A stretch of DNA of 37,236 nt from a virus (lineage: Duplodnaviria; Heunggongvirae; Uroviricota; Caudoviricetes), in the IMG/VR virus record IMGVR_UViG_2778261175_000003; one strand, 5' to 3'. The first letter of the stretch is position 1. Each line of letters begins with the position of its first letter. Below are positions 803 to 30,747 of this stretch, piece after piece. The translations under genes were made by a program, and so were the position numbers. Below the pieces are notes generated by a model. That model was not told where the DNA came from. It was given only the letters and a program-made list of their open reading frames with translations, and did not search any database.

Positions 803-1117
803 GTGGTTGCTGATCATGAATATTTGTATTGGAAGATAATTGCAATGAGCGAAAGAGTGTTTGAGAAAGAACTATATTCTGAATGGGTTATACGCAATAG
901 TCTATATTGGATGACTCCGCTTACTCGATGGAAACTCCATGAAGACGTTTCCCACTGGATAATCTCTTTTGAAAACGATAATCCCAAATTCCTTTATGAA
1001 TTCGATAGGCTGCTTAATGATTACTCTTTGCGAGAAAAGCTACAGCATAAAACAGGGGCGTTGAGAGACTCTATTGTCCATAAAGTGCTTCGCAGTGTTG
1101 ATGAGAGGCTTTCATAA
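803..1117 (+). CDS. hxsD: Small protein at the head of the Hxs cassette, HxsD-like by position
   Basis: ORF track (GTG start at 803; alternative ATG at 845). Stop overlaps the start of the next gene (TAATGG). Assignment by operon context only. Confidence 0.45.
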   Translation: MVADHEYLYWKIIAMSERVFEKELYSEWVIRNSLYWMTPLTRWKLHEDVSHWIISFENDNPKFLYEFDRLLNDYSLREKLQHKTGALRDSIVHKVLRSVDERLS

Positions 1118-2505
1118 TGGAATTGATGCCATTTAATTTTGACAGATTGCCTAATGGACAGGTGTTTATAAGCAACCTTGCAGGTTTTCATCATTTCATT
1201 GGTGAGCAAGACCTTATTGATCTTTCTGATGAGCGAATTAGTTCGGAGCAATCAAACGTGCTAGAAAGTAAGCTTTTCATAACCAGTGAAAGCTCATCTG
1301 CTATAACTCCCTATGCTTTAAGTTCTGCTTTTGCAAAACGATTGATGAATGAACTGGCTGTCAGGCCAATTTTCATGATTGTACCCACATTACGTTGTGA
1401 CCATACATGCAAGTATTGCCAGGTTAGTAGAGCTTCTGTTAATGCCTCAGGTTACGACCTAAATCCTGAGCTCATCCCCGATATTATTTCGGCTATTAAA
1501 AAACTATCAACGCCACCTTACAAAATAGAGATACAGGGTGGGGAGCCTCTCTTGCGGTTTGATTTAATTCAGAACATCTATGATCAATGTGCTGAAACGC
1601 TGGGAAGAACCAATTTTGAGATGGTGGTGGCATCAAGTCTGTCTGTCTTGAATGAGGATATGATTGAATGGTCGAGAGACCGGAACATAACGTTCTCTGT
1701 GTCGCTTGATGGTGAGGAAGTTGTTCACAACAGTAATCGAATTCTTGGTCGTGGGCTTGCGTACAGTAGAACAGTGTCAGGGGTAGAGGCTATCAAACAC
1801 TCTTTAGGTGCTGGCCGCGTTGCAACGGTTACTACAGTTACTAAAGAGCTTATCAGACGTCCTGAATCGATTGTTCAGGCTCACTTGTCTCTTGGGCTCA
1901 AGGACATGTTTATCCGACCTGTTAGTCCCTATGGGTTTGCACAAAAAGCTTCTTTCACCTTTTCTATGGACGAATACTTCAGCTTCTATGCCTCGTTGAT
2001 AGATGAAATCCTTAAGATTAATAATGAAGGGATAAGGGTTGTGGAACATTCGGCCTCCATTCATCTGAAAAGGATCTTCAATCCCGGTTTTAGTGGCTAT
2101 GCGGATTTAAAGTCTCCAAGTGGAGTCGTGCTTAACAGTATTCTTTTCAATTATGACGGTCGAGTATATGGTAGCGATGAGAGCCGTATGTTGCAGAAGG
2201 TGAATCCTGAAACGGAGTTCAGTGCGGGTGAAGTTAAGACGCTATCATTTTCTGATAGTCCTTACTATAACGCAGTATTGACTTCATCGTTCAATTTTGC
2301 TCTGCCAGGTTGTGATACATGTGCATATCAACCATTTTGTGGTTCAGATCCATGCCAGAACATAAGTGTACAGGGTGAGCCTGTCGGCGATAGGAGTCGT
2401 TCAACGTTTTGTCAATATCACAAGGGGATGTTCAGGTATCTGATGAACTGCATCTCAGAGGGTGGTTCGAAGGCTGAGATGCTAAAAGGATGGGCATATG
2501 TCTGA
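1117..2505 (+). CDS. hxsB: Radical SAM/SPASM-type maturase, HxsB-like (462 aa)
   Basis: CxxxCxxC motif (CDHTCKYC) about 95 aa from the N-terminus, C-terminal Cys cluster (CDTCAYQPFCGSDPCQ) typical of SPASM/twitch domains; GGEPLL motif; translationally coupled to neighbours. B versus C naming is by size and order, from memory of the TIGRFAMs Hxs families. Confidence 0.75.
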   Translation: MELMPFNFDRLPNGQVFISNLAGFHHFIGEQDLIDLSDERISSEQSNVLESKLFITSESSSAITPYALSSAFAKRLMNELAVRPIFMIVPTLRCDHTCKYCQVSRASVNASGYDLNPELIPDIISAIKKLSTPPYKIEIQGGEPLLRFDLIQNIYDQCAETLGRTNFEMVVASSLSVLNEDMIEWSRDRNITFSVSLDGEEVVHNSNRILGRGLAYSRTVSGVEAIKHSLGAGRVATVTTVTKELIRRPESIVQAHLSLGLKDMFIRPVSPYGFAQKASFTFSMDEYFSFYASLIDEILKINNEGIRVVEHSASIHLKRIFNPGFSGYADLKSPSGVVLNSILFNYDGRVYGSDESRMLQKVNPETEFSAGEVKTLSFSDSPYYNAVLTSSFNFALPGCDTCAYQPFCGSDPCQNISVQGEPVGDRSRSTFCQYHKGMFRYLMNCISEGGSKAEMLKGWAYV

Positions 2506-3610
2506 GGTTATCAGGAACGATATCTTTCATTTTGCTTCTACAGAGAACGTGCCCACGGGGTTCTATCGGTTATGCAAACAAAAACCAGTGAACCCTTTAT
2601 TCTTTTTGCCCAATTTGCTAGTAGTTGCTGAGGGCAATAATGATGCCATTCCACCATGCTTTGATTTCTCTGTTATTAGCACTGAATTATTTGAGTCAAT
2701 TGAAGATGGAGATATTGGGATAATCAACAATGGCAATATGATACGCGTTATTCTGTCACGCAAAGCCAACCATAATACTGTCTTAGTTACGGAACGCTGC
2801 AATAACTTGTGTCTGTTTTGTTCGCAGCCACCAAAGAAAATAAATGATGACTGGCTACTTACCCAATCAGCTCTTGCTATAGCTTCATTTGGCTTGAACG
2901 GAGTTGTTGGGGTCAGCGGTGGTGAACCTTTGCTATATGGGGATGACTTCCTTCACTTCATTGATTTTATCATCGAGAATTCACCAGATACTGCTTTACA
3001 TGTTTTAACAAACGGACGCAAATTTGCTGATACCAACTTTACACAGGAAATGGCAAAGCGAAGCAAAAAGATCAAAATCACCTTTGGTATCCCGCTCTAC
3101 TCATCAAGACCACTTGTGCATGATCATCTGGTAGGGAGTGATGGCGCATTTAATGAAACGGTTAAAGGGTTAATCAATGCAGGAAACTTGGGGATTAATA
3201 TCGAACTTAGAGTTATTCCTACACTGGCTAACTATACCGAATTGGATGATATCGTAGAATTCGCTGGCCGTGTGTTCTCCAACATCAATCAGATTTCCCT
3301 TATGGGGTTGGAGCCTATCGGTTGGGCACGAAAAAACTGGTCCACCATCTTCATTGATCACAGTAGTTATAGTGAGAAAATAATCTCTGCCATAGACGCT
3401 GCATACAGGTCAGGCATACCTCTGACAATTTTTAATTATCCTTTGTGTTATCTTCCTGAAAGGGCTAGGGAGCTTGCTGTTCAGTCGATCTCTGATTGGA
3501 AAAATTACTATCCAAAAGAATGTGATGAATGTACTCAGAAGCCTTCCTGTGCTGGCTATTTCAGTTCCTCAAAAGGCCGTTTTCATCAATCACCGAGACC
3601 AATTTTATGA
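2498..3610 (+). CDS. hxsC: Second radical SAM/SPASM-type maturase, HxsC-like (370 aa)
   Basis: CxxxCxxC (CNNLCLFC), GGEPLL motif, C-terminal Cys cluster (CDECTQKPSC). Start ATGTCTGA overlaps the hxsB stop; its stop overlaps the hxsA start (ATGA). Confidence 0.75.
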   Translation: MSEVIRNDIFHFASTENVPTGFYRLCKQKPVNPLFFLPNLLVVAEGNNDAIPPCFDFSVISTELFESIEDGDIGIINNGNMIRVILSRKANHNTVLVTERCNNLCLFCSQPPKKINDDWLLTQSALAIASFGLNGVVGVSGGEPLLYGDDFLHFIDFIIENSPDTALHVLTNGRKFADTNFTQEMAKRSKKIKITFGIPLYSSRPLVHDHLVGSDGAFNETVKGLINAGNLGINIELRVIPTLANYTELDDIVEFAGRVFSNINQISLMGLEPIGWARKNWSTIFIDHSSYSEKIISAIDAAYRSGIPLTIFNYPLCYLPERARELAVQSISDWKNYYPKECDECTQKPSCAGYFSSSKGRFHQSPRPIL

Positions 3611-4242
3611 AAAAGTTTAATTTTGCTGCTCTACTTCCGGGATTTTTGGCTCTCAACAATTCTGTATGGGCAAGCGATTCATCTACAGGAGCGAGTGATT
3701 TACCTGGTATGACTCTTAATGAGCATGATTTAGTGATAGCTCCACTTAACACGGAAGTCCCATTTTATATCGCAGGGCATCGAAGCCATAGTTCTCATAG
3801 GAGCCATAGCTCTCATAGATCCTCATCAGGTGGTGGATACTATGGTGGAAGTACCCCCTATTATCCAAAAACATACAGCTCACCAAGTTCATCTGGTTCT
3901 TCAAGTTCAGGTGCAAGTTCCTCATCGTCCTCTTCCTCGGTGCGTGCACTTCGTTCTAACGATAATAATAGAACCACTAACACGAGTTCTGTTGGAACTT
4001 CAGAGGTTAACCGTACGAGTAATGGGCTTGCTTCTGATGCAGAGAAACGTAAGCGATTGATTATGCGAGTTCAGTTCGCATTGCTGGACAGGGGATTTTA
4101 TAACGGAAATATTGACGGCATAATGGGGCCATCCACAAGGCTGTCTGTGAAAAATTACCGCATTGCGAATGGATTACCGATTCCTGCAACTGAAACACTC
4201 GACACACAATTGTTAAATTCTTTGAATATATTAGCTCGCTAA
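3607..4242 (+). CDS. hxsA: His-Xaa-Ser repeat protein HxsA-like: signal peptide, (HxS)x5, Ser-rich linker, C-terminal peptidoglycan-binding-like domain
   Basis: Start taken at MKKFNFAALLPGFLALNNSVWA (ATG 3607) rather than the track start 3529. Contains HRSHSSHRSHSSHRS, a poly-Ser tract and a C-terminal segment (RVQFALLDRGFYNGNIDGIMGPSTRLSVKNYRIANGLP) resembling PG_binding_1 domains. Confidence 0.75.
   Translation: MKKFNFAALLPGFLALNNSVWASDSSTGASDLPGMTLNEHDLVIAPLNTEVPFYIAGHRSHSSHRSHSSHRSSSGGGYYGGSTPYYPKTYSSPSSSGSSSSGASSSSSSSSVRALRSNDNNRTTNTSSVGTSEVNRTSNGLASDAEKRKRLIMRVQFALLDRGFYNGNIDGIMGPSTRLSVKNYRIANGLPIPATETLDTQLLNSLNILAR
3778..3822 (+). repeat. Coding tandem repeat encoding five His-Xaa-Ser units
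   Basis: DNA reads cat-cga-agc-cat-agt-tct-cat-agg-agc-cat-agc-tct-cat-aga-tcc; position derived from codon arithmetic in the hxsA frame. Confidence 0.8.
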
Positions 4243-4406: not shown

Positions 4407-5516
4407 TCATTCTGCTATCCATTCCGGGATTTTTGCCTCAAGCTCAAGCTGTGTGGTAAAGCCGCTGTTATCAATGGTGTGCTCGGCTTTTGCAATAATC
4501 CAGTCCTGATTATCAATCTCGCTTTTAAATCCTGTTACCGTGCCATGCATTTCGGGGTAGAGTTCTGCACGCCCACGTGCCAGCGTGATGGAAAATGATG
4601 CGGCTCCGCGTTGTAGCTGCTGCCACTTTGCCGCCGCTGCGCGTCTTGCTGCCTGCTCGTTTTTAAACGTTTTGCGCATGACGTATACATTGCCGTCTGC
4701 GCCCTCCATGTAATCCCCCTCGCGGCTGCTGCTTTTCTCCTTTTTTGTTTTTTGGGCAGAACCACGTTTCGTCACGCTGACTTTTTTCTTTTTGCCATAG
4801 TCCAGGTCCAGCCAGTAAGCGCGTACCCCCGTGTACGCCTGCCGGTCTGCAATGCGGAAGTGATGGCTGTCACCGCTGCTGCGGGTGATGGCGAATGAGG
4901 GCAGCGGCTTTCCGCTGGCGCTCACCCCCTGTCCGGGCACGATGAAAAGCAGTGCGCCGTTCTTGACGGTGGCTATGGCTCCCAGCATGTCTGCCATACG
5001 CGTGAGAAACGAGATGTCACTTTCCTCCGTCTGGTCGGCGTGGTCGATTTCCACCTCTGCCAGCGAGGCGCTGATTTGCGCCTTCAGCCCGTAGCGGTAC
5101 GCGATGGCAGAAACAACCTGCCCCACCGTCACGTCATGCCAGGACACTTCACGCTTCACGTTGAACTCCTGCCGGAAGTCTGCGCTGCTGGCCGTGATGG
5201 TGAGCCTGTCCGGTGGTCCCTCATGTGTCACCTCGTCAACGATGAAGGTTCCTTTGTCCATCAGTGCCTCACCTTTCCAGCCCAGCGCCAGACCCAGCGT
5301 CTGTCCGCGCTTCGGGAGCTGCACGCTGCCGTCGCAGTCGTCAATCGTGAGGGTTAACTGGTCTGCCTCAAATCCCCGGTTGTCGGTCATCGCCAGCGAG
5401 ATGACCCGTCGGGTCAGCGCCGCGTTTTCCGTGCCCTTAACCGTGATGGAAAAATCAGGGATCTTCACGCACTCTGACAGACCGTTCAGGTATCCGCTTA
5501 CGTCCGCAGGGTTCAT
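4407..5516 (-). CDS. D: Tail protein D (late control gene D family)
   Basis: Protein resembles P2 gpD. Start placed at MNPADVSG (ATG at 5514-5516, GGAGA RBS upstream) rather than the track GTG at 5699. Confidence 0.85.
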   Translation of the reverse strand: MNPADVSGYLNGLSECVKIPDFSITVKGTENAALTRRVISLAMTDNRGFEADQLTLTIDDCDGSVQLPKRGQTLGLALGWKGEALMDKGTFIVDEVTHEGPPDRLTITASSADFRQEFNVKREVSWHDVTVGQVVSAIAYRYGLKAQISASLAEVEIDHADQTEESDISFLTRMADMLGAIATVKNGALLFIVPGQGVSASGKPLPSFAITRSSGDSHHFRIADRQAYTGVRAYWLDLDYGKKKKVSVTKRGSAQKTKKEKSSSREGDYMEGADGNVYVMRKTFKNEQAARRAAAAKWQQLQRGAASFSITLARGRAELYPEMHGTVTGFKSEIDNQDWIIAKAEHTIDNSGFTTQLELEAKIPEWIAE

Positions 5517-5588
5517 CGCAATTTCTCCGTCTGTGTCTTCGTACGGCGAAATACTCCCACGCGCACGGAGGCGCTGTAATCCTGCGTA

Positions 5589-5614
5589 TGTTGTCGGAGA
5601 GCGGCGAGAACAGG
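5589..5614 (+). promoter_or_regulatory. Candidate late-promoter activator element TGTTGTCGGAGAGCGGCGAGAACAGG upstream of FI
   Basis: Near-identical 26-nt element recurs upstream of P (24183-24208); each lies about 60-80 bp upstream of a late-gene start and carries TGT...ACA ends reminiscent of the Ogr-dependent P2 late promoter motif. Spacing differs from the canonical TGT-N12-ACA. Confidence 0.4.
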
Positions 5615-5678
5615 CAGCGCGTGAATGCGGGGCTGTTTTTCGGGAGGATGTCGCCACACAAAACACCAGGAGGTGCTC

Positions 5679-6860
5679 ATGAGTGAAACACGCTTTCACG
5701 GTGCACGCGTCAAAGAAAACACCGACCTCGTGACCGCGATTAATGACATTGATTCCAGTGTCATCGGTATCGTGGCCACGGCGGACGATGCAGACAGCGA
5801 CGCGTTCCCGTTAAACAAGCCCGTATTGATCACCCGCGTGGCGAATGTGCTGGGTAAGGCAGGCACAACAGGCACGCTGTACAAAACGCTCAAGGCGATT
5901 TCCGACCAGACCAGCCCGAAGGTTATCGTGGTGCGTGTGGCAGAAGCCGGAGAGGAAGGTGAGACACAGGATCAGCTTGTCATTGGTGGCTCGCAGGCTG
6001 ACGGCAGCTACACGGGCATGTATGCCCTGCTGGTTGCTGAACAGGACGAGAGCATTGGTTACCGCCCGCGCATTCTGGCGGCTCCCGGCCTGGATACCGA
6101 AGCAGTCACATCCGCCCTGTGCGTCATTGCGGACAAGCTCCGCGCCTTTGTGTACGCCGGATGTAACGGGTGCGACACGATGGCGGAGGCAATCACTTAC
6201 CGTGCGAAGTTCTCCGCGCGTGAGCTGATGCTGCTGTGGCCTGACTTCATTGCCTACAACCCGGTGAGCGGAAATAACGAAACATTTCCGGCAGCGGCGT
6301 ATGCGTGCGGGTTGCGTGCGCGGATTGACAGTGAACAGGGCTGGCACAAGTCACTGTCCAACGTGGCGCTGAAAAATGTTCTCGGTATGTCGCAGCAGGT
6401 GTTCTGGTCGTTGCAGGCCGAAGACAGTGATGCGAACAACCTGAACAACAAGGAAATCACCACGATTATTCGCCGTAACGGCTTCCGCTTCTGGGGGAAC
6501 CGTACTGCCGAAACCAGCGACTACATCTTTGAGGTGTACACGCGCACAGCGCAGATTCTGGCAGATACCATCGCTGAGGCGCAGTTCGAAACCATTGACG
6601 AACCGCTGACCCCGGCGAACGTGAAGGACGTGATTAGCGCCATCCGCGCAAAACTCAACGCCCTGGTGACGGCCGGGAAACTCATCGGTGCGGAGTGCTG
6701 GTATGACGTGCTGGACAACGGCACGACGGATTTGCGTCAGGGGCGCGTGCGCATCCGTTATAAGTACACGCCAGTGCCGCCGATGGAAGATCTGACGCTG
6801 TATCAGACCTTCACGGATGAGTATTTCGACTCCGCTTTTGCAACGCTGGGAGGTGCGTAA
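5679..6860 (+). CDS. FI: Contractile tail sheath protein
   Basis: Strong similarity to P2 gpFI (e.g. FPLNKPVLIT, ELMLLWPDF, RRNGFRFWGNRT, YKYTPVPPMEDLTL). Start at ATG 5679 with AGGAGG RBS. Confidence 0.9.
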   Translation: MSETRFHGARVKENTDLVTAINDIDSSVIGIVATADDADSDAFPLNKPVLITRVANVLGKAGTTGTLYKTLKAISDQTSPKVIVVRVAEAGEEGETQDQLVIGGSQADGSYTGMYALLVAEQDESIGYRPRILAAPGLDTEAVTSALCVIADKLRAFVYAGCNGCDTMAEAITYRAKFSARELMLLWPDFIAYNPVSGNNETFPAAAYACGLRARIDSEQGWHKSLSNVALKNVLGMSQQVFWSLQAEDSDANNLNNKEITTIIRRNGFRFWGNRTAETSDYIFEVYTRTAQILADTIAEAQFETIDEPLTPANVKDVISAIRAKLNALVTAGKLIGAECWYDVLDNGTTDLRQGRVRIRYKYTPVPPMEDLTLYQTFTDEYFDSAFATLGGA

Positions 6861-7376
6861 ATGGCTGTACCACGTTACGTTCGCCAGTTCACGCTGTTTG
6901 TGAACGGCAAAAACAAAATCGGCACGGTGACAGGCATCACTCTGCCCAAGCTGACCCGAAAAACCGAAGCCTATCGCGGTGGCGGGATGCTGGGTGCGGT
7001 GCATATTGACCTCGGACTGGATGACGGCGCACTGGATGCCTCGTTCACCACCGGTGGGGTTGAAAAAGAGCTGCTCCAGGAATACGCCACTGACATTAAC
7101 GAAGTGGCGCTGCGCTTTGTGGGTGAGCTGTTCACCGATGGTGAGGAAAGTCAGCTCCTTGAGGTGGAGATGCGCGGACGCATCACGGAAATCGACCGTG
7201 GCGAAACCAAACAGGGCGACACCACGCAGTACACCTTCGCCGTCAAAAACACCTACTACAAGGAGTCGGTGGATGACAGCGATGTGACAGAAATCGACCT
7301 GCTGAACTTCATCTACAAAAAAGACGGCCAGAACGTCTTTGGTGACCGCGTGAGTTCGGCGCTCGGTCTGAACTGA
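6861..7376 (+). CDS. FII: Tail tube protein
   Basis: Position directly after FI, size (171 aa) and similarity to P2 gpFII. Confidence 0.85.
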   Translation: MAVPRYVRQFTLFVNGKNKIGTVTGITLPKLTRKTEAYRGGGMLGAVHIDLGLDDGALDASFTTGGVEKELLQEYATDINEVALRFVGELFTDGEESQLLEVEMRGRITEIDRGETKQGDTTQYTFAVKNTYYKESVDDSDVTEIDLLNFIYKKDGQNVFGDRVSSALGLN

Positions 7377-7839: not shown

Positions 7840-8003
7840 TCACGCTGGCGAAGTTCGACAACGTTGAAGAACTGGTCGCTGATATAGCAGTCGTGTTTAA
7901 CTGGTCGCCCGGCGAGATATTCTCAATGCCTCTCGTCGAGGTGATGAGCTGGCGTGAGCGGGCGGCGCAACGTAGCGGAGTCCGCAACAGTGAAATCCCT
8001 TGA
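7423..8003 (+). CDS. E+E' fusion produced by programmed -1 frameshift at T_TTT_TTT (7785-7791)
   Basis: Hand translation of the -1 frame from 7791 gives an open 70-codon extension (..ITLAKFDNVEELVADIAVVFNWSPGEIFSMPLVEVMSWRERAAQRSG..) ending at TGA 8001-8003 and overlapping the T start, as in P2 E/E'. Confidence 0.7.
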
Positions 8004-11000
8004 TATTCGTGTCAGCTTTGGCGCAATTGACCGGCTGACACGCCCGACCGAAAACGCCCGCCGTCAGGTGGGCGCTCTCACTGAATCCCTTCAGAAGACG
8101 CAGAACAACATACAGGCGCTCGACAGACAGTCGAAGGTGTTCGATCGTGCCGCCGGAAATCTCAGTAAATACCGCGAACAGATTGCCCGCGCGGAGCAGA
8201 GGCTCGCCGGGCTGCGAAAGGCAGAGCAGGACGGTAACACTCTCTCCGAAAAGCAGCGGGAGATGATGACGGCGCTGTCTGCACGTCTTGAGCGCCTGAA
8301 CGAGCTGCGCACGCGCGAGCGCGAAAAACTCCAGGCGGCGGCAGGCGAAATGCGCAAACACGGCATTCTGCTTTCCGGCAGCAGCCGCACCATCGAAAGT
8401 GCCGTTCGCCGTACACAGCAGTACAACGAGCAGCTCGAGCGCGAACGGCAGGCACTGGCTCGCGTGACGCAGGCACAGAGCCGCTATGAGGCCGCGAAGG
8501 CACAGGCGGAAAAACTGCGCAACACAGGGGCTGTGGCGATGGCGGCGGGTACAGGCGGCCTGTATGCGGCGCAGCGCATGATGGTTCCGGCGATGGAGTC
8601 CGAACAGCACGGCGCGGTCATTGCTGCCGGTTCAGGGGAAGCCCCACAGGATGGCGCACGTTACACCCACATCATCCGTAACATACAGGCTGACAGTCTC
8701 GCTGATTTTGCCGGTGCTGCGGAGGCTGTGAGTGCGGTACGCAGTACGCTCGGCGCGCTGGGCGACACCGGCGACCGGGAACTGGAGCGCATCAGCCGTC
8801 GTGCGCTGGATATGCGGACCGTCTTTGGTGTTGATGTGCCGCAGAGCATTCAGGCCGCAGCCATCATGATGAAGAACGGGCTGGCCGCCAGCAGTGACGA
8901 GGCTACTAACCTGATGACGGCAGGGATGCAGCGCATGTCCGCTGAAATGCGCGATGAACTGCCGGAAATTCTGCATGAGTATTCCACCCACTTCCGCAAC
9001 ATGGGCTTCACCGGCAGCGAGACAATGAGTCTGCTGGTTGAGATGGCAAAGCAGGGCAAGTTTGCGCTGGACAAAACCGGCGATGCCGTGAAGGAGTTCA
9101 GTATCCGTGGTTCGGATATGTCGAAATCCAGTGTTTCAGCGTATGAGACACTCGGCCTGAATGCCGAACGGGTGTCTGCTGCCATTGCTCAGGGGGGCAG
9201 TACCGCACGCCAGGCGATGCAGGTGACCGCCCGTGCACTGCTGGCCATCCGTGACCCGGCAGAGCGGGCGAACACGGCCATTGCGTTATTCGGCACCCCC
9301 GTTGAAGACCTTTCCGTTGACCAGATCCCGCAGTTCCTGAGGGCGCTGGCTGATGTTCGTGACAATCTGGGCGATGTCACCGGTGTGGCAGACCGCATGG
9401 GGCAGACGCTGCGCGGTAATCTCTCCGGCGATATTCAGGCGCTGAGTGGTGCGTTCTCAGGGCTACGCACGGACATCTTCGGTACTGTGACCGAGGATTT
9501 GCGCGGGCTGGTTCAGACGGTGAGCGCGTGGGTGACCCGGATGCGCGAATGGGTCGGAGAGCATCAGGCGCTGGTCAGAGTCCTGGTGCTGACCGGCGGG
9601 AGTGTTCTGGCGCTGTCTTCCACGTTCGGTGCGCTGTCACTGACGCTCGGGCTGATTGCGGGGCCGCTGGCAAAACTGCAACTGGGGCTGGGGCTGCTGA
9701 CGGGGGGCGGCGGCATTGGTGGTGCTGTCCGGCTTGTGTCTGCGATGGCACTGCGCCTGACGGGGCTGCCTGCGCTGTGGGGGCTGGTCACGGGGGCGGT
9801 GTCGGTACTGGGTGGCGCACTGGGGGCGCTGTTCAGTCCGGTCGGGCTGATTGTTGCCGCCCTGGTGGGCGGCGCGGTTCTGGTGTGGAAATACTGGGAT
9901 CAGATCAGCGCGTTTTTTTCCGGCTTTTTTGCCGGAGTGTGGGAGGCGCTGCAACCGCTGCGGGAAGCCTTTGCATCGCTGGCTCCGGTGTTCGGGTTGA
10001 TTGGTGACGGCATCAAAGCTGTGTGGGAGTGGTTCACCCGCCTGCTTGAACCTGCGAACGCCTCAAAAGAGACGCTCGACAAATGCACCAGTGCCGGGGA
10101 GTCGTTCGGCAAAACGCTGGGGTGGGTCATTCAGAACATTGTGCTGGGGCCGCTGATGCTGCTCCTTGATGGTCTCGGTACCGTGCTGAAGTGGCTGGGT
10201 GTCATCCCGGACGGCATCAAAAAGGCACAGAAGGAGACGCAAAAACTCCAGGTGAGCGCCGCAAAACAGGCCACACAAAAAGCGCCGGTTGCGTGGGAGT
10301 GGGATCCTGCACAGAAAAAAATGGTGCAGAAAACATGGTCGTGGTCATCAGATGCAGAGGAAAACAACGGTGACAATAAACCCGCAATACCTGCCCCTGC
10401 GGTTCCCGGAGAGGTGAAGGGAACGTCAGACAATCCGGTCAGCAAACCCGGTAGTAAATCCCCGCTGGATGAGGCATGGTTCCGGCAGGGGATACAGAAA
10501 ACCGCCAGCAACACCGGCGGGCTGCTTGAGGAAACCAAAAAACGTACTGGTCCCGGCGATATTGTTTTCAAAAACCTGCCCGGACCCGAAATCATTCACG
10601 GCGAGTGGAAAGCACCGCAGGTTATCCGGACAGTGCAGGCGGTATCGGCGGGCGGAGGACTGGCGGATGCGCTGACAACGCTCTGGCAGAAACTCACCGG
10701 AAGACAGACTGCTTCACCCGTTCCGGTCGTGAATATTCCTGCGCCAGTGGAGAGAGTGGCACGTCAGGTATCCACGCTGCCGCAGCACAACGAGGCAAAT
10801 ACAGAACTGGTTGCCGGTATTCAGCGTGTGCATGAGGCGGTGAACAGTCCGGGTGGAGAGGGCACTTTGCCTTCCCCCGTGGTTAACGTTCTGATGCCAG
10901 CAGTGAATGTTCCTGCGCCAGTGGTGAGCGTGGCCCGTCAGGTGTCCACGCTGTCACAGCCGCAGCACAACGAGGCAAATACAGAACTGGTTGCCGGTAT

Positions 11001-11454
11001 TCAGCGCGTGCATGAGGCGGTGAACAGTCCGGGGGGAGAGACGGTATCGCCTCCACCTGTGGTGAACGCTCTGATGCCAGCAGTGATTGTTCCTGCGCCA
11101 GTGGTGAGCGTGGCGCGTCAGGTATCCACGCTGCCGCAGCACAACGAGGCAAATACAGAGCTGGCTGCCGATATTCAGCGCGTGCGTGAGGCTGTAAACG
11201 GCCCGGGCGGAGATGTGGCTTTATCTGTTCCTGTTGCGGAGGTTATCCGTCCACCGCTGCGACCGGAGTCCGTCAAAAAAGAAACCGCGCCACAAACGCA
11301 GGCTGCGGCATTTTCCGGTGAAATACACGTACATCTGCACAACGTCAACACGCAGAATCCGCGTGAACTGGCAAAACTGGTTGGCGAGGCTGTCCGCGAA
11401 GAGATGCGCAGACAGGCGCGTACAGGCATGAACAGCTTCTGTGACAGGGACTAA
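7954..11454 (+). CDS. T: Tail tape measure protein
   Basis: Very long ORF after E/E' with coiled-coil N-terminus, Gly/Ala-rich hydrophobic middle and internal repeats. Track start is GTG 7954; an alternative GTG near 7990 is possible. Confidence 0.85.
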   Translation: MSGRRNVAESATVKSLDIRVSFGAIDRLTRPTENARRQVGALTESLQKTQNNIQALDRQSKVFDRAAGNLSKYREQIARAEQRLAGLRKAEQDGNTLSEKQREMMTALSARLERLNELRTREREKLQAAAGEMRKHGILLSGSSRTIESAVRRTQQYNEQLERERQALARVTQAQSRYEAAKAQAEKLRNTGAVAMAAGTGGLYAAQRMMVPAMESEQHGAVIAAGSGEAPQDGARYTHIIRNIQADSLADFAGAAEAVSAVRSTLGALGDTGDRELERISRRALDMRTVFGVDVPQSIQAAAIMMKNGLAASSDEATNLMTAGMQRMSAEMRDELPEILHEYSTHFRNMGFTGSETMSLLVEMAKQGKFALDKTGDAVKEFSIRGSDMSKSSVSAYETLGLNAERVSAAIAQGGSTARQAMQVTARALLAIRDPAERANTAIALFGTPVEDLSVDQIPQFLRALADVRDNLGDVTGVADRMGQTLRGNLSGDIQALSGAFSGLRTDIFGTVTEDLRGLVQTVSAWVTRMREWVGEHQALVRVLVLTGGSVLALSSTFGALSLTLGLIAGPLAKLQLGLGLLTGGGGIGGAVRLVSAMALRLTGLPALWGLVTGAVSVLGGALGALFSPVGLIVAALVGGAVLVWKYWDQISAFFSGFFAGVWEALQPLREAFASLAPVFGLIGDGIKAVWEWFTRLLEPANASKETLDKCTSAGESFGKTLGWVIQNIVLGPLMLLLDGLGTVLKWLGVIPDGIKKAQKETQKLQVSAAKQATQKAPVAWEWDPAQKKMVQKTWSWSSDAEENNGDNKPAIPAPAVPGEVKGTSDNPVSKPGSKSPLDEAWFRQGIQKTASNTGGLLEETKKRTGPGDIVFKNLPGPEIIHGEWKAPQVIRTVQAVSAGGGLADALTTLWQKLTGRQTASPVPVVNIPAPVERVARQVSTLPQHNEANTELVAGIQRVHEAVNSPGGEGTLPSPVVNVLMPAVNVPAPVVSVARQVSTLSQPQHNEANTELVAGIQRVHEAVNSPGGETVSPPPVVNALMPAVIVPAPVVSVARQVSTLPQHNEANTELAADIQRVREAVNGPGGDVALSVPVAEVIRPPLRPESVKKETAPQTQAAAFSGEIHVHLHNVNTQNPRELAKLVGEAVREEMRRQARTGMNSFCDRD
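10729..11220 (+). repeat. Three tandem coding repeats (about 174-180 bp, about 58-60 aa each) inside the tape measure gene
   Basis: Copies begin near 10729, 10903 and 11083; protein unit PVVN.PAPV..VARQVSTLPQHNEANTELVAGIQRVHEAVNSPGGE. Confidence 0.8.
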
Positions 11455-11467
11455 AGGAGACACAATT

Positions 11468-11926
11468 ATGATGATGATTTTTGGCATGTTTGTGTTTGAA
11501 CTGAAAACGCTGCCGCATCAACAGATTCAACAAAACAAAACGTGGCGGCATGTGAAAAATGAGCGCATTAACCGCTCTGCGGCCTGGCAGTATATCGGTG
11601 CAGGTGATGAGCAGATCACGCTGTCTGGTCAGCTGTACCCGGAAATTACCGGTGGTGAGGTGTCGCTGACACTACTGAACACCCAGGCCTACACCGGATG
11701 TCCCTGGCCGCTGATTGATGGCACGGGGCAGATTTACGGAATGTACGTGATTACGGGATTACAGACCACCCGCTCCGAGCTGGATCGTTACGGAAAGGCA
11801 AAAAAGATTGAGTTCTCCATCAGCTTTCAGCGGTGTGATGAGGATATGAGGGAGAAACTCCAGTCTGCTTCTGCGGGTGAATTACTGAACACGCTTAAAG
11901 ACAAAATGGCTGAGGCTGCATTCTGA
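11468..11926 (+). CDS. U: Tail protein U
   Basis: Similarity to P2 gpU; start at ATG 11468 preceded by AGGAG RBS (track start 11441 overlaps T). Confidence 0.8.
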   Translation: MMMIFGMFVFELKTLPHQQIQQNKTWRHVKNERINRSAAWQYIGAGDEQITLSGQLYPEITGGEVSLTLLNTQAYTGCPWPLIDGTGQIYGMYVITGLQTTRSELDRYGKAKKIEFSISFQRCDEDMREKLQSASAGELLNTLKDKMAEAAF

Positions 11927-11934
11927 ATAAAAAA

Positions 11935-11959
11935 GAGGGAGTGTAAAAAGCACTCCCTT
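11935..11959 (-). terminator. Hairpin (GAGGGAGTG-loop-CACTCCCTT) with A-run on plus strand, i.e. U-run on minus strand
   Basis: Read directly; functions as an intrinsic terminator for leftward transcription and possibly marks the end of the U operon. Confidence 0.4.
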
Positions 11960-12055
11960 ATGGCCTTCATGGAAAAGAAGCAAATGTTGTCAATACATTC
12001 TGACTATATATAAATCGCCTGATGATGGCAATGGTGATATTCGGGAAATAAAAAA

Positions 12056-12072
12056 GCCCTCGCAAAGAGGGC
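12056..12072 (-). terminator. Hairpin GCCCTC-GCAAA-GAGGGC preceded on plus strand by an A-run (minus-strand intrinsic terminator)
   Basis: Read directly from the sequence. Confidence 0.45.
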
Positions 12073-12245
12073 AACATGCATTGTGTGAAGATTTAATTTT
12101 TCTGGTTGCAGGGGGGATTATATTGAACTGTATTCATTTAATGCAATATTTTTAATTGTCATCATCATTGATGAAAATATTTCTTGTGTTTTTGTTGCCC
12201 TGATTACAATTTCACTCATTACTGTGTCTTTGCGGCAAAAAAAAA

Positions 12246-12262
12246 GCCCGCACGGGGCGGGC
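12246..12262 (-). terminator. Hairpin GCCCGC-ACGGG-GCGGGC preceded on plus strand by nine A (strong minus-strand intrinsic terminator)
   Basis: Read directly from the sequence. Confidence 0.55.
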
Positions 12263-12963
12263 AAGGAATGTTTGCATGTGTATAACACTGCGGGATTATA
12301 AATAAATTACGCGTTCTGTAAAATCCCCTTTGATGGAGATTCAGGCCATACCAGCGCATTATAACAATCTTCGTCCTTCACGGAAGTGAAAGTCACCTGC
12401 TGAAGTTCTTTAATGTATTCAATTCACGCAGCCAACCTTCCTTTGTCTTGATCGCTGATGGTGCCGGGCAATAACTCAGATTGCCAGATTCTGATCCTCT
12501 CTTTTGCCTCCGGCAGCAGGGGATTTCGTTGTCATTCTGCTTTAGCCTGCCACTTTTCAGGTGGCAGCACATGACGAACAATATTTTCATCATCAAATAT
12601 CCAGTTACCTGAGTCATCAGCACGTTGGTTAGCGTTAATATCAGAAGTATTAACAACACTAAAACCGACATGATTAAGTGTTGATGCCTCTCTGGTAATG
12701 GTGACAATAATATTATTTCGTTGTAAATCATTTTGATTTTATCTGGTCGAAAGGTCCCTGCATCGTTATGCCGGTTTTTATTTCCTTCAGAGGAAATATG
12801 ATTACTTTGTGCTTCTTTTTTAACACATACAGTCTGGAGTTAATGTTGCCTGTTTTATGTTCTTGAGTGCGTCATATTAATCTCTTACATATTATATCTG
12901 GTACAATTTATAGTTTTCTGAAGCTTGCCTGAAAGAATTGAGTTTCCTGCAGGCTTTCAAGGG

Positions 12964-13062
12964 GGTGATGATGATATGCGGGAGAAACTTCAGCCTGCAT
13001 CTGTGTGGGGAATCACTGAATACGCTTAAAGACAAATCGTCGTCGCTGAACGCATTCCCTTA
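12964..13062 (+). pseudogene. Degraded duplicate of the 3' end of tail gene U
   Basis: About 75 nt align at roughly 85 percent identity (by eye) with the true U 3' end at 11840-11915 (GATGA.GATATG.GGGAGAAACT.CAG.CTGC.TCTG...CTGAA.ACGCTTAAAGACAAA), with a 1-nt deletion breaking the frame. Confidence 0.6.
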
Positions 13063-13108
13063 ACCTGACGCCACCACCTCATACAGATAACGAGGTGGTA
13101 GCGTGATT

Positions 13109-13402
13109 TCACCAGTAACTAACCGACAGCCAGAACAACAGGCATGTTGCCACCGGTACAGCAAAATCCATCAGGCTTCCGGCATCCCACACGCGCGGAT
13201 CAAAACCACCCCACCATGGCATGTTAATTCGTTTCCCTTTCCCGAATTTTTCAATCCAGCGATATTCTGCCTGGGTGTGTTCACGTGCAATGAAGAACGT
13301 ACAGCCAGCTACCGCACCATAAGTCCAGTTTCCGGTGAAAAGCCCGGCCAGAAGCTGAGCAGCCACAGCACAAAGTGCATGAAGCAAGGGGCTTATATCC
13401 AT
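13109..13402 (-). CDS. Hypothetical small membrane protein (97 aa, two hydrophobic segments) downstream of the tail-fibre module
   Basis: ORF track; hydrophobic N- and C-terminal stretches; no family recognised. The antisense 13103-13756 ORF is judged a shadow. Confidence 0.4.
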   Translation of the reverse strand: MDISPLLHALCAVAAQLLAGLFTGNWTYGAVAGCTFFIAREHTQAEYRWIEKFGKGKRINMPWWGGFDPRVWDAGSLMDFAVPVATCLLFWLSVSYW

Positions 13403-13414
13403 TGTTTTCTCCCT

Positions 13415-13693
13415 TCAGCTCCATTCCCGAAGCGGTGTTTCCAGCTCCACCACATAATCAGAGAACACAGAAATATCAAACGCATCATCAAGAATGCGGA
13501 TGTTGACAAAATAACCGTCATTCCGGATACAGACAGCTTCCCCCTCTTCAGTTACCCCTGTTTCTGTGTAGGTGAAACCAATTTCATTGACCAGAAGTTT
13601 GTTCTGGAGGTCTTCGTTTTCCTCCCAGTCAAGAGACGACAGGAATGCTTTAAACTGCTGTTTATCATGAAATTTCAGGGTCAGATCTTTCAT
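13415..13693 (-). CDS. Hypothetical acidic protein (92 aa) translationally coupled to H; possible tail-fibre accessory/assembly factor
   Basis: ATGA overlap with the H stop; occupies the position of P2 gene G but no sequence similarity recognised. Confidence 0.4.
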   Translation of the reverse strand: MKDLTLKFHDKQQFKAFLSSLDWEENEDLQNKLLVNEIGFTYTETGVTEEGEAVCIRNDGYFVNIRILDDAFDISVFSDYVVELETPLREWS

Positions 13694-15456
13694 ACCGCCT
13701 CCTTGATTTGTCTGTCGTTTAATTCTTTATGCCATAGGCGGAAATTACGAATATGACCAAACAAATGACGCGTTCCTGCTGCTGTCTGCCCACCAAAGCG
13801 GCATAAATTTGCTGTAACACCAAATGTTTTCCCTTCAGCGGTTACCGCATAATTACCATTGCATATTGCATTTATCGCCAGGTCGGCTCCTGCCCTCAGC
13901 CCCATAATGAATTTATCTCCATCGGCGAGGATTTTTGCGTTGATCATTCCCACTCCAGCAACTATTGTTCCCGCCGAGGAAAAATTAAGCGACATATAAT
14001 CGTTATCAATGCTGTATCCTCCGGTGTCAAATACCCTTGGCGCAATATTGGGGGGAGTATTCCAGTTTTTGTTCACTTCGCACAATACGGTAAAAGGTCG
14101 TGCTGACAGGTTATTTTTCGCAGGGATTGTTACCACATCACTGGCTCTTGTCGTTGCGCTGGCTCCCGAAACAATAAATGATGATACACAAGCACCATCC
14201 TCAACTTGTGGAGTAGCAAGATAAATATAATCACCGGATGCAATTGTTCCACCCCATTTAGGTGAACACTGGATCTGAGAGCCTATTTTTAACTCACCCT
14301 CAATTGCCTCAATTGTTGCCTCGGCAAAAATCCAGCCAGTAGTCTCATCTTTTCTGGCTCTGGCTGAAATTCTGTCTGAGGCATCTCCGGTCGTATTAAT
14401 TTCAAACGTCTGTGTATCAATGTACGCATCACCAAGAAAAGTTGTTGCACTGCCGTCATATTTATCAAACCGGATGCGGAGCCTTAGCTGTAATTCTGTT
14501 TTAAATCGGCATGAGGTTGTCACGTACTTGTTATCGCCAGAGACATCAACCGCCTCTGTTGCAGCAACTGATGCCATATTTACAGCGGAGGTCTGCCCAA
14601 TCAGAGAATCGTTGCAGACAAACTTCCCATAAGTAAAACCAAAACTATCCGTCCCGGTTTCGGGTACATCCATACTTACTGACTTGCCCCAGTTGGCCGG
14701 GGTTTCCGAATTGAGCATGTAGTTTGTTCTTTGCCCTTCAATCAGCAGACCTTCGCGCTCAAATCGTGGCTCATTAATTTCCGCCGTTTTCAGTTCACCC
14801 GATTTATTGATATAGGTTGCCGTTGATGCGCGCGTGAAACTAACCTGTTTATCACTGGCAACCTGAACCACATCATCACCAATGGTGATTTTTTTATAGC
14901 CCGGAGCGAACCCCGTAAGCATATCCAGTGAATCGTTAAACGGTATCCATACATCAGGCAGCGGCGGTACAGAGTCCTTTTCCTGTGCAACATATTCTTC
15001 AACATAGGCGCGGGTGGCGAGCACGACAGAGGGATCAACTTTCAGCTCGACGGATGAAGCACTGGAAACCACAACAATCATGCGAATTGTCTGCGTGCGC
15101 CCGCTTCCCTCGGCGAGTACGGGCTTGTAGGTTTCGGGGCAGTTCGCCACGGCAATCATCACGCCGTCGCTGTCAAAAAGCCCAATCTCGCGGATCCAGA
15201 ACCCCCCTTTGTCTTCCGGGATAATCATCTCGGCGACAAGCTGGCTGGCATCGGACGCGCTGACGCTCAGTTGATTCAACGGGGCGCTGTATACCGTGTT
15301 CACCAGCTTTTCCATGGACGCCGCCGGTTCCGGCAGGCTGCCGCCGCCATCTCCCAGTTTCATGGTGGTGATGGATATTTTTGAGCCGCTGGCCACCGCC
15401 TTTGCCAGACGGGCAGCACCTTTGTCAGTCAGAACAGAAAAATATTTTACAGTCAT
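13690..15456 (-). CDS. H: Tail fibre protein with P2 H-like N-terminus and a divergent, LamG/ConA-like C-terminal receptor-binding region
   Basis: N-terminal about 150 aa closely match P2 gpH (MT.K...V.T..GAA.LA.A...G.K..ITTM..GDGGG.LP.P...). C-terminus ends GHIRNFRLWHKELNDRQIKEAV, a pattern recalled from LamG-type jellyroll domains. Confidence 0.8.
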   Translation of the reverse strand: MTVKYFSVLTDKGAARLAKAVASGSKISITTMKLGDGGGSLPEPAASMEKLVNTVYSAPLNQLSVSASDASQLVAEMIIPEDKGGFWIREIGLFDSDGVMIAVANCPETYKPVLAEGSGRTQTIRMIVVVSSASSVELKVDPSVVLATRAYVEEYVAQEKDSVPPLPDVWIPFNDSLDMLTGFAPGYKKITIGDDVVQVASDKQVSFTRASTATYINKSGELKTAEINEPRFEREGLLIEGQRTNYMLNSETPANWGKSVSMDVPETGTDSFGFTYGKFVCNDSLIGQTSAVNMASVAATEAVDVSGDNKYVTTSCRFKTELQLRLRIRFDKYDGSATTFLGDAYIDTQTFEINTTGDASDRISARARKDETTGWIFAEATIEAIEGELKIGSQIQCSPKWGGTIASGDYIYLATPQVEDGACVSSFIVSGASATTRASDVVTIPAKNNLSARPFTVLCEVNKNWNTPPNIAPRVFDTGGYSIDNDYMSLNFSSAGTIVAGVGMINAKILADGDKFIMGLRAGADLAINAICNGNYAVTAEGKTFGVTANLCRFGGQTAAGTRHLFGHIRNFRLWHKELNDRQIKEAV

Positions 15457-16229
15457 GAAAAAATCCTCAAAGAATCCTCCAGAAATACCACTGATGCTGT
15501 CAGGGTTCCGGTTGTGGCGGTCAGTTGCATCACTGCCTGTGGCTCCACGGTCACCGCATCATCGCCCGTAACCCGTAATCCCATGACAATCCCCGCATCG
15601 ACAGATACCGACGGTGTCGGCGGGTAAATGGTGAGCATGTCGCCGTCAAAGAAAGTCGGAGATGCCCGGAACACCGAAACAGTCTCAACACCGGCAGAAG
15701 CGGCTGGCCAGATTGTTGTTTCACTGCCGTCGTGCATGCCGGAAAACACACGTGCGACTCCCTGCGTATCCAGCATAATGTTCAGCGAGGCAAGGTGGCG
15801 GCTGACCGGACGGGCATCGTCGATCAGTCGTGTCAGCTCGGAGTACGTTTCCTCTGTGATACCCGCGTCCTGCACGCCAATATCAATGCGGAACGTGCCG
15901 CGCGGGTCGCCGTTCTGCCACCACTCCGTCACGTTAATGACATAGCCAAAGGGTTCAACCACACGCCTGATGGCGCTGATGGTTCCCTTATGGCGGTGGA
16001 TTGCCCAGGCATCACGGATCACCTGGCGCTTTGTTTCTTCCGTCCAGTCACGATCCCACCTGTCCACGGACAGCGCCCACGCCAGATAAGGCAGCAGGGC
16101 CACCGGACAGGTGTCAGGATCCCAGAGCTGGTTAAGGCTGACAGGCAGTGCTGACAACCGGCTTGTTCCCCGCTCCACGCAGCGCATGAAATCGCTGGCT
16201 GAAGGGGGGAGAAGTGATGGCTCACTCAT
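15453..16229 (-). CDS. I: Baseplate assembly protein I
   Basis: Similarity to P2 gpI; start placed at MSEPSLLPP (M22 of the track ORF). Confidence 0.8.
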   Translation of the reverse strand: MSEPSLLPPSASDFMRCVERGTSRLSALPVSLNQLWDPDTCPVALLPYLAWALSVDRWDRDWTEETKRQVIRDAWAIHRHKGTISAIRRVVEPFGYVINVTEWWQNGDPRGTFRIDIGVQDAGITEETYSELTRLIDDARPVSRHLASLNIMLDTQGVARVFSGMHDGSETTIWPAASAGVETVSVFRASPTFFDGDMLTIYPPTPSVSVDAGIVMGLRVTGDDAVTVEPQAVMQLTATTGTLTASVVFLEDSLRIFS

Positions 16230-17118
16230 TGGTTCCCCCTGCGCTGACTGTGAACGATGTGCAGTACGCTGACTGCACATCGCTGATAACAATATTCTGT
16301 GCGGGGCTGGTCAGTTCCACGCGCTGAACGCCCTGAACATGCAGCGCGGCCATGATGGCGGAAAGCGCCACATCGCGACCGATTTTGCCCTGTTCAGCAA
16401 GCCAGGCCTCCAGATTGTTTCTGGCTGCATTCAGGATGGGTTCCGACTCCGGCCCCGGATAAAAGTAAAGCCGGGCATCAATCTGATACCGGATGATTTC
16501 TGCACTCTGCACCGTCAGGCGGTCACCGACCGGGCGAACGTCTTCGGCATTCAGCGCATTTCTGACCGTCGTCAGGAGTGCTTCGGTCGCCGTACCGTCG
16601 CCTTCCGTGGACAGCACCGCCACCACCACTTCCGCCGGTGCTGGGCTGGTAGCGCGCGCGTCCGCCACCTGACCGCTGGCACTGCGGGCAAAATACTCAT
16701 ACGCTCCGGTGGGACCGGCCACGCTGAGGCCATCAAATGCAGACTGCGCACGCAGCCGCAGGGCCGTGTCGCTTTCCATGACGGCCTCCGTGGTGTCCGT
16801 GGCCGGAGTGATGACCAGCCGCGTGGTGTTCATGTTGGCGGCGAGGTTATCCAGGTTGCTGCCCGAGGAGTGGCTCAGCATACAGGCCGCTGCCCCTTCA
16901 TTAATTCGCTGGCGAAGCAGCAACTCACGCAGTGCAAATGCCTGAGCGATGACCGTGAGCGGTTCGGACTCCAGCGCCATGGCTGACCGGACGGCAGCCT
17001 GTTGTGTCTGTGGAAATGACGTAATGATGTCTTCTTTCACTTCCGCCAGGATGACTTCAAAATCCGGCGTTTCAATAATCTGTGGTGTCGGCAGTTCCGA
17101 CAGGTCAACGGCTGGCAT
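16222..17118 (-). CDS. J: Baseplate protein J
   Basis: Similarity to P2 gpJ; P2 order W-J-I preserved. Confidence 0.85.
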   Translation of the reverse strand: MPAVDLSELPTPQIIETPDFEVILAEVKEDIITSFPQTQQAAVRSAMALESEPLTVIAQAFALRELLLRQRINEGAAACMLSHSSGSNLDNLAANMNTTRLVITPATDTTEAVMESDTALRLRAQSAFDGLSVAGPTGAYEYFARSASGQVADARATSPAPAEVVVAVLSTEGDGTATEALLTTVRNALNAEDVRPVGDRLTVQSAEIIRYQIDARLYFYPGPESEPILNAARNNLEAWLAEQGKIGRDVALSAIMAALHVQGVQRVELTSPAQNIVISDVQSAYCTSFTVSAGGTNE

Positions 17119-30643: not shown

Positions 30644-30747
30644 GGGATTTTTAAATCCTGTTTTTGCCTGTTTTATGCGCGCTTTATATTTCGCGGCGCG
30701 TTTTTTGCTCATTTACGGGATTTGTGAATCCCGTTTCTGTCTGTTTT
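30644..30747. repeat. Two 31-bp imperfect direct repeats, each with an internal inverted repeat (GGGATTT-N3-AAATCC..GTTT.TG.CTGTTTT), upstream of parM and overlapping the 3' end of A
   Basis: Copies at about 30644-30674 and 30717-30747, separated by an AT-rich spacer; candidate parC-like centromere/operator or part of the replication origin. Confidence 0.45.

Follow-up and report, generated by a model that had tools for sequence, protein, structure and literature searches.

Probable remains of a tail-fibre module change in the seemingly empty kilobase beside gene U of a P88-like prophage

Introduction

Between tail gene U and the tail-fibre operon of a P2-related prophage lies a kilobase of AT-rich DNA in which no intact gene can be recognized. 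What is this DNA, and how did it come to be there? The prophage is IMG/VR virus record IMGVR_UViG_2778261175_000003 (Caudoviricetes), a stretch of 37,236 nucleotides (nt) that was analysed as a whole and is called here the window; its gene order is that of Escherichia phage P88 (Peduoviridae, genus Xuanwuvirus). The DNA in question, called here the island, spans positions 11927-13108. An earlier note, made from the letters of the sequence, had read it as a decayed slot for cargo genes, equivalent to the Z/fun region of phage P2 and bearing a footprint of cassette exchange. We arrive at another reading, to which we give a probability of roughly 85%: the island is a non-functional recombination scar, left by a change of the tail-fibre module in a P88-like prophage. 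Its recognizable pieces are a pseudogene of the fibre chaperone gene tfa, the end of an old fibre gene and the end of a second U gene.

Results

The island contains a degraded second copy of the U 3' end

The island is AT-rich, as had been noted: its fraction of guanine plus cytosine is 0.399, compared with 0.501 in U, 0.606 in the tape measure gene T and 0.538 in the whole window. When 11780-11930 was used as a blastn query against the whole window, the 3' end of U (11803-11905) aligned with 12932-13036 at 83% identity over 106 columns (E=3.5e-23). This was its sole non-self match above noise, the runner-up having an E value of 0.05. A MAFFT alignment of the two segments agreed with the blastn pair, and a repeat search recovered it as two blocks, one of 72 nt at 76% and one of 30 nt at 90% identity, offset by 1 nt. 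The repeat (11802-11905 and 12932-13036) is direct, both copies having equal orientation, and the second copy, designated U', begins 1005 nt past the U stop codon.

The pairwise alignment proposed in the earlier note thus returned a significant similarity, and the repeat that it had placed about 1 kb beyond U is real. The description of this repeat has nevertheless to be amended, as it is about 105-133 nt long rather than 75, and its frame is broken not by a deletion but by a 1-nt insertion near 13004-13008 (a +1 frameshift). The copy is translated as ERIEFPAGFQGGDDDMREKLQPAS and, after the frameshift, as GESLNTLKDKSSSLNAFP followed by a stop codon, the intact U protein ending in KKIEFSISFQRCDEDMREKLQSASAGELLNTLKDKMAEAAF. 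More than 40 independent U alleles of distant relatives, that of phage P88 included, match 12928-13005 with their residues from ~111 onward (~111-140). U' therefore represents the last ~42 codons of a U gene; it is no complete second gene, containing only residues ~111 to the end, in frameshifted form.

The remainder of the debris is a tfa pseudogene with the end of its fibre gene

A minus-strand frame of 68 codons without a stop, mentioned in the earlier note as possible dead cargo, does exist (12535-12738 exactly), but it corresponds to the middle of a tfa pseudogene. In a tblastn search, the intact Tfa protein of the prophage of E. coli strain 135 (locus L004; 187 amino acids (aa)) matched the island at 67% identity over 136 aa (E=4e-62), in one frame containing two in-frame stops: TGA at 12534-12532, which is TCA in L004, and TGA at 12426-12424, which is TGG in L004. 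The conceptual translation of 12310-12717 was recognized by PF02413 (E=1.5e-14; 54.7 bits, with a cutoff of 22.1) and by phrog_136 (E=1.1e-27). Both ends of the gene can still be identified, the ATG surviving at 12875-12873 and the natural stop codon TAA at 12309-12307. The 5' third contains at least six frame-breaking indels of 1-2 nt, and the N-terminal part is in another frame. Profile matching thus places the remnant in the Caudo_TAP family, but its reading frame is interrupted; with two TGA codons and at least six indels, it is a pseudogene and no working member of this family.

The fibre gene that once preceded this tfa is represented by a short stump. By blastn, 12740-12880 matched the annotated tfa/fibre boundary of E. 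coli prophages (72%, E=3e-8); a search of the phage collection with 12740-13110 returned no match. A nucleotide alignment with locus L005 covers the tfa 5' third and the fibre end (76% over 321 nt, with multiple 1-2 nt indels) and continues past the fibre stop codon into the last ~45 nt of the fibre gene. The stump ends in LQKTINCTRYNM followed by a stop codon, directly upstream of the start of the tfa pseudogene; the fibre end with which it was compared is LQKLINGTWYNVASI, also followed by a stop. The tfa remnant is accordingly not located directly downstream of its fibre gene, as only this ~14-codon stump precedes it, and the working fibre gene H is separated from it by the U' stump and by two genes encoding proteins of 97 and 92 aa.

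No other gene was found in the island, in agreement with the earlier note. A minus-strand open reading frame (ORF) of 112 codons listed there is present (12393-12731) and matches no Pfam or PHROG family; it runs out of frame with the tfa homology and is an artefact. The other small ORFs had no convincing family match either, the only one being a sub-threshold Pfam match of a 56-aa ORF, and 1-nt indels break them in relatives; for these reasons, the 112-aa and the small ORFs were rejected as genes. A search of the island with proteins of distant relatives, corresponding to the proposed scan for gene fragments, detected tfa and U fragments only, and no remains of accessory genes.

Such debris can find its way into databases. 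RefSeq lists, at 3908-4072 of locus L001 (NZ_CP054353.1, strain SCU-172), a 54-aa 'hypothetical protein' (WP_085654976.1), which is the C-terminal fragment of the tfa pseudogene past the second nonsense codon and hence an annotation artefact. Annotators may take it as an example that 'hypothetical proteins' called in the island are pseudogene debris.

All scar-bearing relatives share one joint, and two relatives have kept the unbroken layout

The 3' end of the old fibre gene, on the minus strand, abuts codon ~111 of U, on the plus strand, within about 12924-12931, and the two sequences are non-homologous. A joint between unrelated, oppositely oriented sequences argues for illegitimate recombination. 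Furthermore, homologous exchange would leave no duplicate, which argues against homologous recombination at the gene end. The footprint of cassette exchange announced in the earlier note can therefore be retained as a footprint of recombination, not as one of homologous exchange at a conserved gene end.

In loci L004 and L026, U is followed by the same spacer, an intact tfa and a fibre gene, and no second U end is present; in L004, the intact tfa comes directly after the equivalent spacer. The scar is carried by nine relatives, all of which have the same joint of tfa start, fibre end and U' end. Those named are L001 with L030, L002 with L027, and an ST131-type group formed by L003, L028, L031 and L032. 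Across the scar, this last group is only ~71% identical to the window and contains lineage-specific indels. Losses also differ between lineages, L002 being devoid of ~12533-12714 and ~12753-12890, and L003 of 12435-12828. The presence of one joint in all carriers, together with their divergence and their different losses, fits a single old event followed by neutral decay. For the region 11400-13500, the best E. coli DNA match is 92.7% identical, which makes the host a near relative of E. coli and none of the sequenced E. coli strains that were searched. The counterpart of U in L001-L004 is annotated as a 459-nt coding sequence for a 'phage tail protein'.

The U' stump exists in two forms. The window-type stump diverges from U past 13036. 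The ST131-type stump still ends in a U-like fashion (GCTGCATTCTGA) and is followed by an A-run and a hairpin, which marks it as a genuine gene end that has retained its terminator. A 23-mer spanning this A-run and hairpin was found only in the four ST131-type scar loci out of 177 loci.

We also observed that, in locus L074 (IMG/VR 2850144620_000003), the working U gene is frameshifted at ~3100-3120 by the loss of one base in or beside the A-run GGCAAAAAAGATTGAG. The same A-run marks the point where the homology of the window's U' stump starts (12931), and it may be a hot spot for slippage or breakage.

Proposed history of the island

These findings suggested the following scenario. The ancestor would have contained U, the 380-base-pair (bp) spacer with its terminators, and then tfa and fibre gene H converging on U from the opposite side. 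In one illegitimate, out-of-register crossover, a site ~40 nt before the old fibre stop would have been joined to codon ~111 of a second U gene, provided by a closely related co-resident phage or by a sister copy of the genome. What lay to the left of the joint, namely U, the spacer, the old tfa and the old fibre stump, would have been kept, and what lies to its right, from the U' end and the hairpin to the 97-aa, 92-aa and fibre genes, would derive from the other genome. The ~1 kb between U and U' would be the resulting partial duplication. Of no use to the new fibre, the stranded tfa would then have decayed neutrally through nonsense mutations, frameshifts and deletions, and both gene-end stumps would have decayed likewise. 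Transcription of the fibre operon probably continues across the scar as far as the old tfa terminator (12246-12262), because on the minus strand it meets no terminator with a U-tract before that point. The region 12307-13063 probably has no function today, as judged from its lesions and from the deletions in it that relatives tolerate.

The coordinates of the features are collected in Table 1.

Table 1. Features of the island, of its surroundings and of the rest of the window.
Feature	Position	Strand	Basis
Intact gpU tail gene (152 aa)	11468-11926	+	PF06995 Phage_P2_GpU, 5.5e-40
Convergent spacer between U and old fibre operon	11927-12306	.	collinear in relatives, three terminator-like hairpins
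tfa pseudogene (Caudo_TAP)	12307-12875	-	tblastn, PF02413, phrog_136
Remnant of old fibre gene, last ~14 codons	~12885-12926	-	nucleotide alignment to L005
psiU', degraded last ~42 codons of gpU	12928-13063	+	U-allele matches, E about 1e-22
Stem-loop	13064-13108 (stem about 13066-13106)	.	folding energy
Current receptor-binding cassette: 97-aa gene, 92-aa gene, fibre H	13109-15456	-	PHROG/Pfam
97-aa predicted membrane protein	13109-13402	-	phrog_1443, no Pfam family
92-aa protein	13415-13693	-	phrog_1361
Tail fibre H	13690-15456	-	phrog_1419/phrog_327; PF12571 fibre collar N-terminus
Fibre operon beyond H: I, J, W, V, S	I: 15453-16292	-	
gpD	4407-5699	-	
Sheath FI	5625-6860	+	
Tube FII	6861-7376	+	
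Tape measure T (3501 nt)	7954-11454	+	
GPA replication gene	30684-33551		
Integrase	starts at 36112		

Origin of the current fibre cassette and the number of steps

Residues 1 to ~150 of H are of P2 type (PF12571), and from residue ~147 on the protein is shared with lambdoid phages, as are the 92-aa and 97-aa genes, whose DNA is 85-89% identical to that of lambdoid phages, ev207 and phage 21 among them. Of the 80 best IMG/VR loci for the 97-aa gene, 78 lack a nearby U, and in those of them that were inspected the gene follows a non-P2 fibre gene whose match to H begins at residues 147-163.

We considered the possibility that the scar arose in two steps. First, an intragenomic or sister-copy event would have created a tandem duplication of ~1.1 kb (U 3' end, spacer, tfa and fibre 3' end); then, with the import of a lambdoid cassette, the distal spacer, tfa and fibre C-terminus would have been replaced by a new fibre C-terminus, the 92-aa gene and the 97-aa gene. 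This is a variant of the scar interpretation and its probability is part of the one given above, since it differs only in the partner and in the number of steps; we regard it as a serious but tentative option. Several observations support it. The extant alleles nearest to the U' stump belong to the resident U clade (81-83% identity for the window-type, about 75% for the ST131-type stump), and the stump contains LNTLKDK, a motif specific to this clade. The 97-aa/92-aa cassette is mainly found in non-P2 phages, as just described. Moreover, the window-type stump has a second breakpoint at ~13037, and no genome with an intact U directly beside the 97-aa gene, the layout expected of a donor, was found among the loci searched. 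On the other hand, an intermediate with two intact tfa copies around a U stump was not seen either, and two rare illegitimate events would be required instead of one. The cassette's home in non-P2 phages and the missing donor layout lean slightly toward the two-step route, with the reservation that sampling was limited.

Several points weigh against the scar interpretation. The donor layout was absent from 19 genome_contigs loci and the 80 best IMG/VR loci retrieved with the 97-aa gene, and from 70 IMG/VR loci retrieved with U; in the first two sets, U was found near the 97-aa gene in two loci only, both already known as scar loci. With such limited sampling, this absence is no proof. None of the 70 IMG/VR U loci had an allele with the tail of either stump, an exact 24-mer of the stump tail had 0 matches in IMG/VR, and a search of IMG/VR with a chimeric U/U' peptide returned the 70 U loci and 0 of donor type. 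The partner genome has thus been deduced, not observed. In addition, the divergence of the window-type stump past 13036 implies at least one later junction, hence a history of more than one step. The fibre stump is short, and its peptide match (LQKTINCTRYNM versus LQKLINGTWYNV) is weak when taken alone (E=0.15). Finally, the lack of function of 12307-13063 is a deduction from its lesions and from the deletions seen in relatives.

The 97-aa protein is called a 'putative membrane protein' in the record of phage 21. In E. coli/Escherichia loci with identifiable upstream genes, lambdoid and P2-like, its gene is the last of the tail-fibre cassette, and homologues with 54-64% identity are present in Pantoea, Leclercia, Aeromonas and Comamonas. 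As the gene adjoins receptor-binding genes, one may think of an accessory role linked to the fibre, for example in masking the receptor or in superinfection exclusion, though this is pure speculation.

The spacer and the hairpin, and whether the scar is kept for a function

The first 380 bp of the island are a spacer. E. coli prophages L001-L004 have it in collinear form, with about 90% identity, and it has also been kept in IMG/VR relatives. It contains three terminator-like hairpins, at 11936-11958 (which folds on both strands), 12056-12072 and 12246-12262 (with T-runs on the minus strand), with folding energies of -11.4 to -16.6 kcal/mol; a terminator scan detected 7 sites where 1.6 were expected. 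These terminators probably still end both convergent operons and are likely the only parts of the island that work today.

Within the spacer, 11927-12100 is particularly well conserved, its mean pairwise identity among nine relatives being 94.6%, as against 85.6% for the third codon positions of U and 80.8% for the next 135 bp. On the minus strand, this segment has two terminator hairpins and a promoter-like site (12031-12003; 10 of 12 matches) situated ~40 nt upstream of the terminator at 11958-11936. From these signals, a small RNA of ~70 nt might be predicted, encoded on the minus strand and ending opposite the U stop codon. We consider this doubtful; if true, P88-like prophages, among them the widespread one of ST131, might use the RNA to control late-gene or host transcripts. 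The segment could instead be a constrained stack of terminators. In a permissive Rfam search of 11700-13300, no family reached its gathering score; the matches to snoU18, mir-4000, asX2 and Trp_leader fell far below theirs and were discarded as chance matches.

At the other end of the island, the hairpin 13066-13106 (about 15 bp) lies in the interval from the U' stump to the stop codon that ends the 97-aa gene. Its folding energy on the minus strand is -27.4 kcal/mol (z=-6.2), that on the plus strand -20.3 kcal/mol. It is not followed by a U-tract, and it may be a stabiliser of the mRNA 3' end.

These features raise the question of whether the scar has been kept for a function, as a long 3' untranslated region or stabiliser of the fibre mRNA, as an insulator between convergent transcripts, or as a source of small RNA. 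The persistence of the scar in several lineages would fit such a role, as would the conservation of 11927-12100, with its promoter-like and terminator-like sites, and a compensatory change in the hairpin 13066-13106, where a paired change of CCTC/GAGG to CCCC/GGGG in L001 and L030 keeps the stem. However, the conserved segment is native spacer, also present in the scar-free loci L004 and L026, and the Rfam search provided no family match. The pseudogene part, moreover, is down to 71% identity between lineages, with many indels, and has suffered large and different deletions in L002 and L003. Retention of the scar for a function is therefore improbable in our estimation.

The U/fibre junction is a variable slot, but the window's slot holds no cargo

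At the equivalent site, relatives of the window have a diverse set of genes, encoding DUF1353, SASA esterase, acyltransferase_3, Ail/Lom, DNA invertase and GT4 glycosyltransferase proteins, as well as a Macro-domain protein, a cytidylyltransferase-like protein and a protein with a weak, sub-threshold PARP-like match. Comparing the junction in relatives, as the earlier note had proposed, thus did reveal accessory genes in some of them, and in L004 an intact tfa at the position of the island. The U/fibre junction is a true variable slot in the P88-like family; that of the window contains no cargo, living or dead.

The interpretation of the island as a decayed accessory (moron) slot like P2 Z/fun, with the 68-codon frame as a fragment of dead cargo, derives its appeal from this diversity and from the AT-richness of the island. 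Yet, that frame is the middle of tfa, which is a structural fibre accessory and not a moron, the first 380 bp are conserved native spacer, and nothing other than tfa and U fragments can be detected in the rest. The site is indeed variable across the family, as the earlier note supposed, but what the window contains there is tfa and U debris beside native spacer, and we hold the decayed-cargo explanation to be very unlikely. That the similarity between U and U' is a chance or low-complexity match, for which nothing but its shortness speaks, can be dismissed in view of the gap between its E value and that of the next match (3.5e-23 and 0.05), the match of its frame to more than 40 independent U alleles and the presence of the stump in relatives.

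An origin from an invertible segment of the Hin/Gin/Cin type, as in P88, was also considered and rejected: the repeat is direct, and the island has neither an invertase fragment nor meaningful inverted repeats. Among the IMG/VR relatives L033-L060, the P88-like members have a serine invertase with alternative fibre ends at the U/fibre junction. In the same set, slot genes occur in pairs: DUF1353 with a SASA-type esterase, GT4 with Macro, and cytidylyltransferase-like with PARP-like. Acyltransferase_3 is the family of O-antigen acetylases.

Other features of the window

In L001 and L002, the annotation lists tail gene I, which is intact in the window, as a partial pseudogene. Three tandem units of ~58 aa (ARQVSTLPQHNEANTELVAGIQRVHEAVNSPGGE) lie in the C-terminal portion of the tape measure protein T (~10700-11300), and they are repeated in the DNA at a spacing of 174 nt with 85% identity. 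The T gene measures 3501 nt in the window, but P88 and the ST131 prophage each have one of 2808 nt; tape-measure length thus varies across the P88-like family, and tail length probably does too. At 1117-3610 (plus strand) and 3529-4242, just past gpD where the tail module has its left edge, two adjacent radical-SAM proteins of 462 and 370 aa and a protein with a weak peptidoglycan-binding match are encoded. In the early region, a gene for an actin-like segregation protein of the ParM/StbA type (29648-30607, minus strand; PF06406, E=2.8e-82) adjoins GPA, which hints at a plasmid-like maintenance option.

Discussion

The scar explains why a kilobase of AT-rich DNA seems empty in a prophage family often met in E. 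coli, ST131 included. It appears to provide a cleanly resolved case in which a receptor-binding module was replaced by illegitimate recombination, the stranded chaperone gene then eroding at lineage-specific rates. It also draws attention to a hot spot for host-range and accessory genes, the U/fibre junction of P88-like phages. No new mechanism or gene is involved; the island is an ordinary by-product of phage mosaic evolution, and the value of the finding lies mainly in annotation and evolutionary bookkeeping. A literature search under the genus name Xuanwuvirus yielded nothing bearing on the U/fibre junction.

That unrelated phages exchange fibre and tfa genes is classical knowledge: the receptor-binding C-terminus of the fibre moves together with its chaperone, and the N-terminal collar stays. 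Haggard-Ljungquist, Halling and Calendar are said to have described in 1992 such exchanges of tail-fibre/tfa modules among P2, Mu, P1, lambda and T-even phages. The window conforms to this pattern in that the N-terminal collar of H is of P2 type, and lambdoid phages share its C-terminal part as well as the 92-aa and 97-aa genes. It departs from it in what was left behind: classical swaps are clean replacements, whereas here the old chaperone gene and two gene-end stumps remain.

As in P88, the series FI-FII-E-T-U of the window converges on the fibre operon and is separated from it by a variable region, and the U proteins of the two are 76% identical. P88 differs in possessing, at this junction, a DNA invertase and a fibre/tfa segment that can be inverted; the window lacks an invertase, and its repeat is direct, with one copy dead.

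The Z/fun locus of P2 is non-essential and lies downstream of the tail-fibre assembly gene G, between G and FI, which are co-directional. Both sites are variable and come right after the final gene of the fibre operon, and in relatives of the window the site is occupied by accessory genes. The equivalence proposed in the earlier note does not hold, however, because the neighbours of the island, U and the fibre operon, converge (the P88/Xuanwuvirus layout), and because the window's slot is devoid of cargo.

A further parallel is with the gene remnants of P2-like prophages, 98% of which contain at least one small intergenic pseudogene fragment, interpreted as debris of intense recombination; about 90% of the fragments are small intergenic pieces (PMC13586616, NAR 2026). 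The scar resembles these remnants in consisting of small non-coding fragments of core genes in a variable locus of a P2-like prophage. It differs from them in its location, as that study dealt with defence hot spots and the present locus is the U/tail-fibre junction of a P88-type genome, and in that it resolves into three named fragments, from tfa, the fibre end and the U end, with one shared joint.

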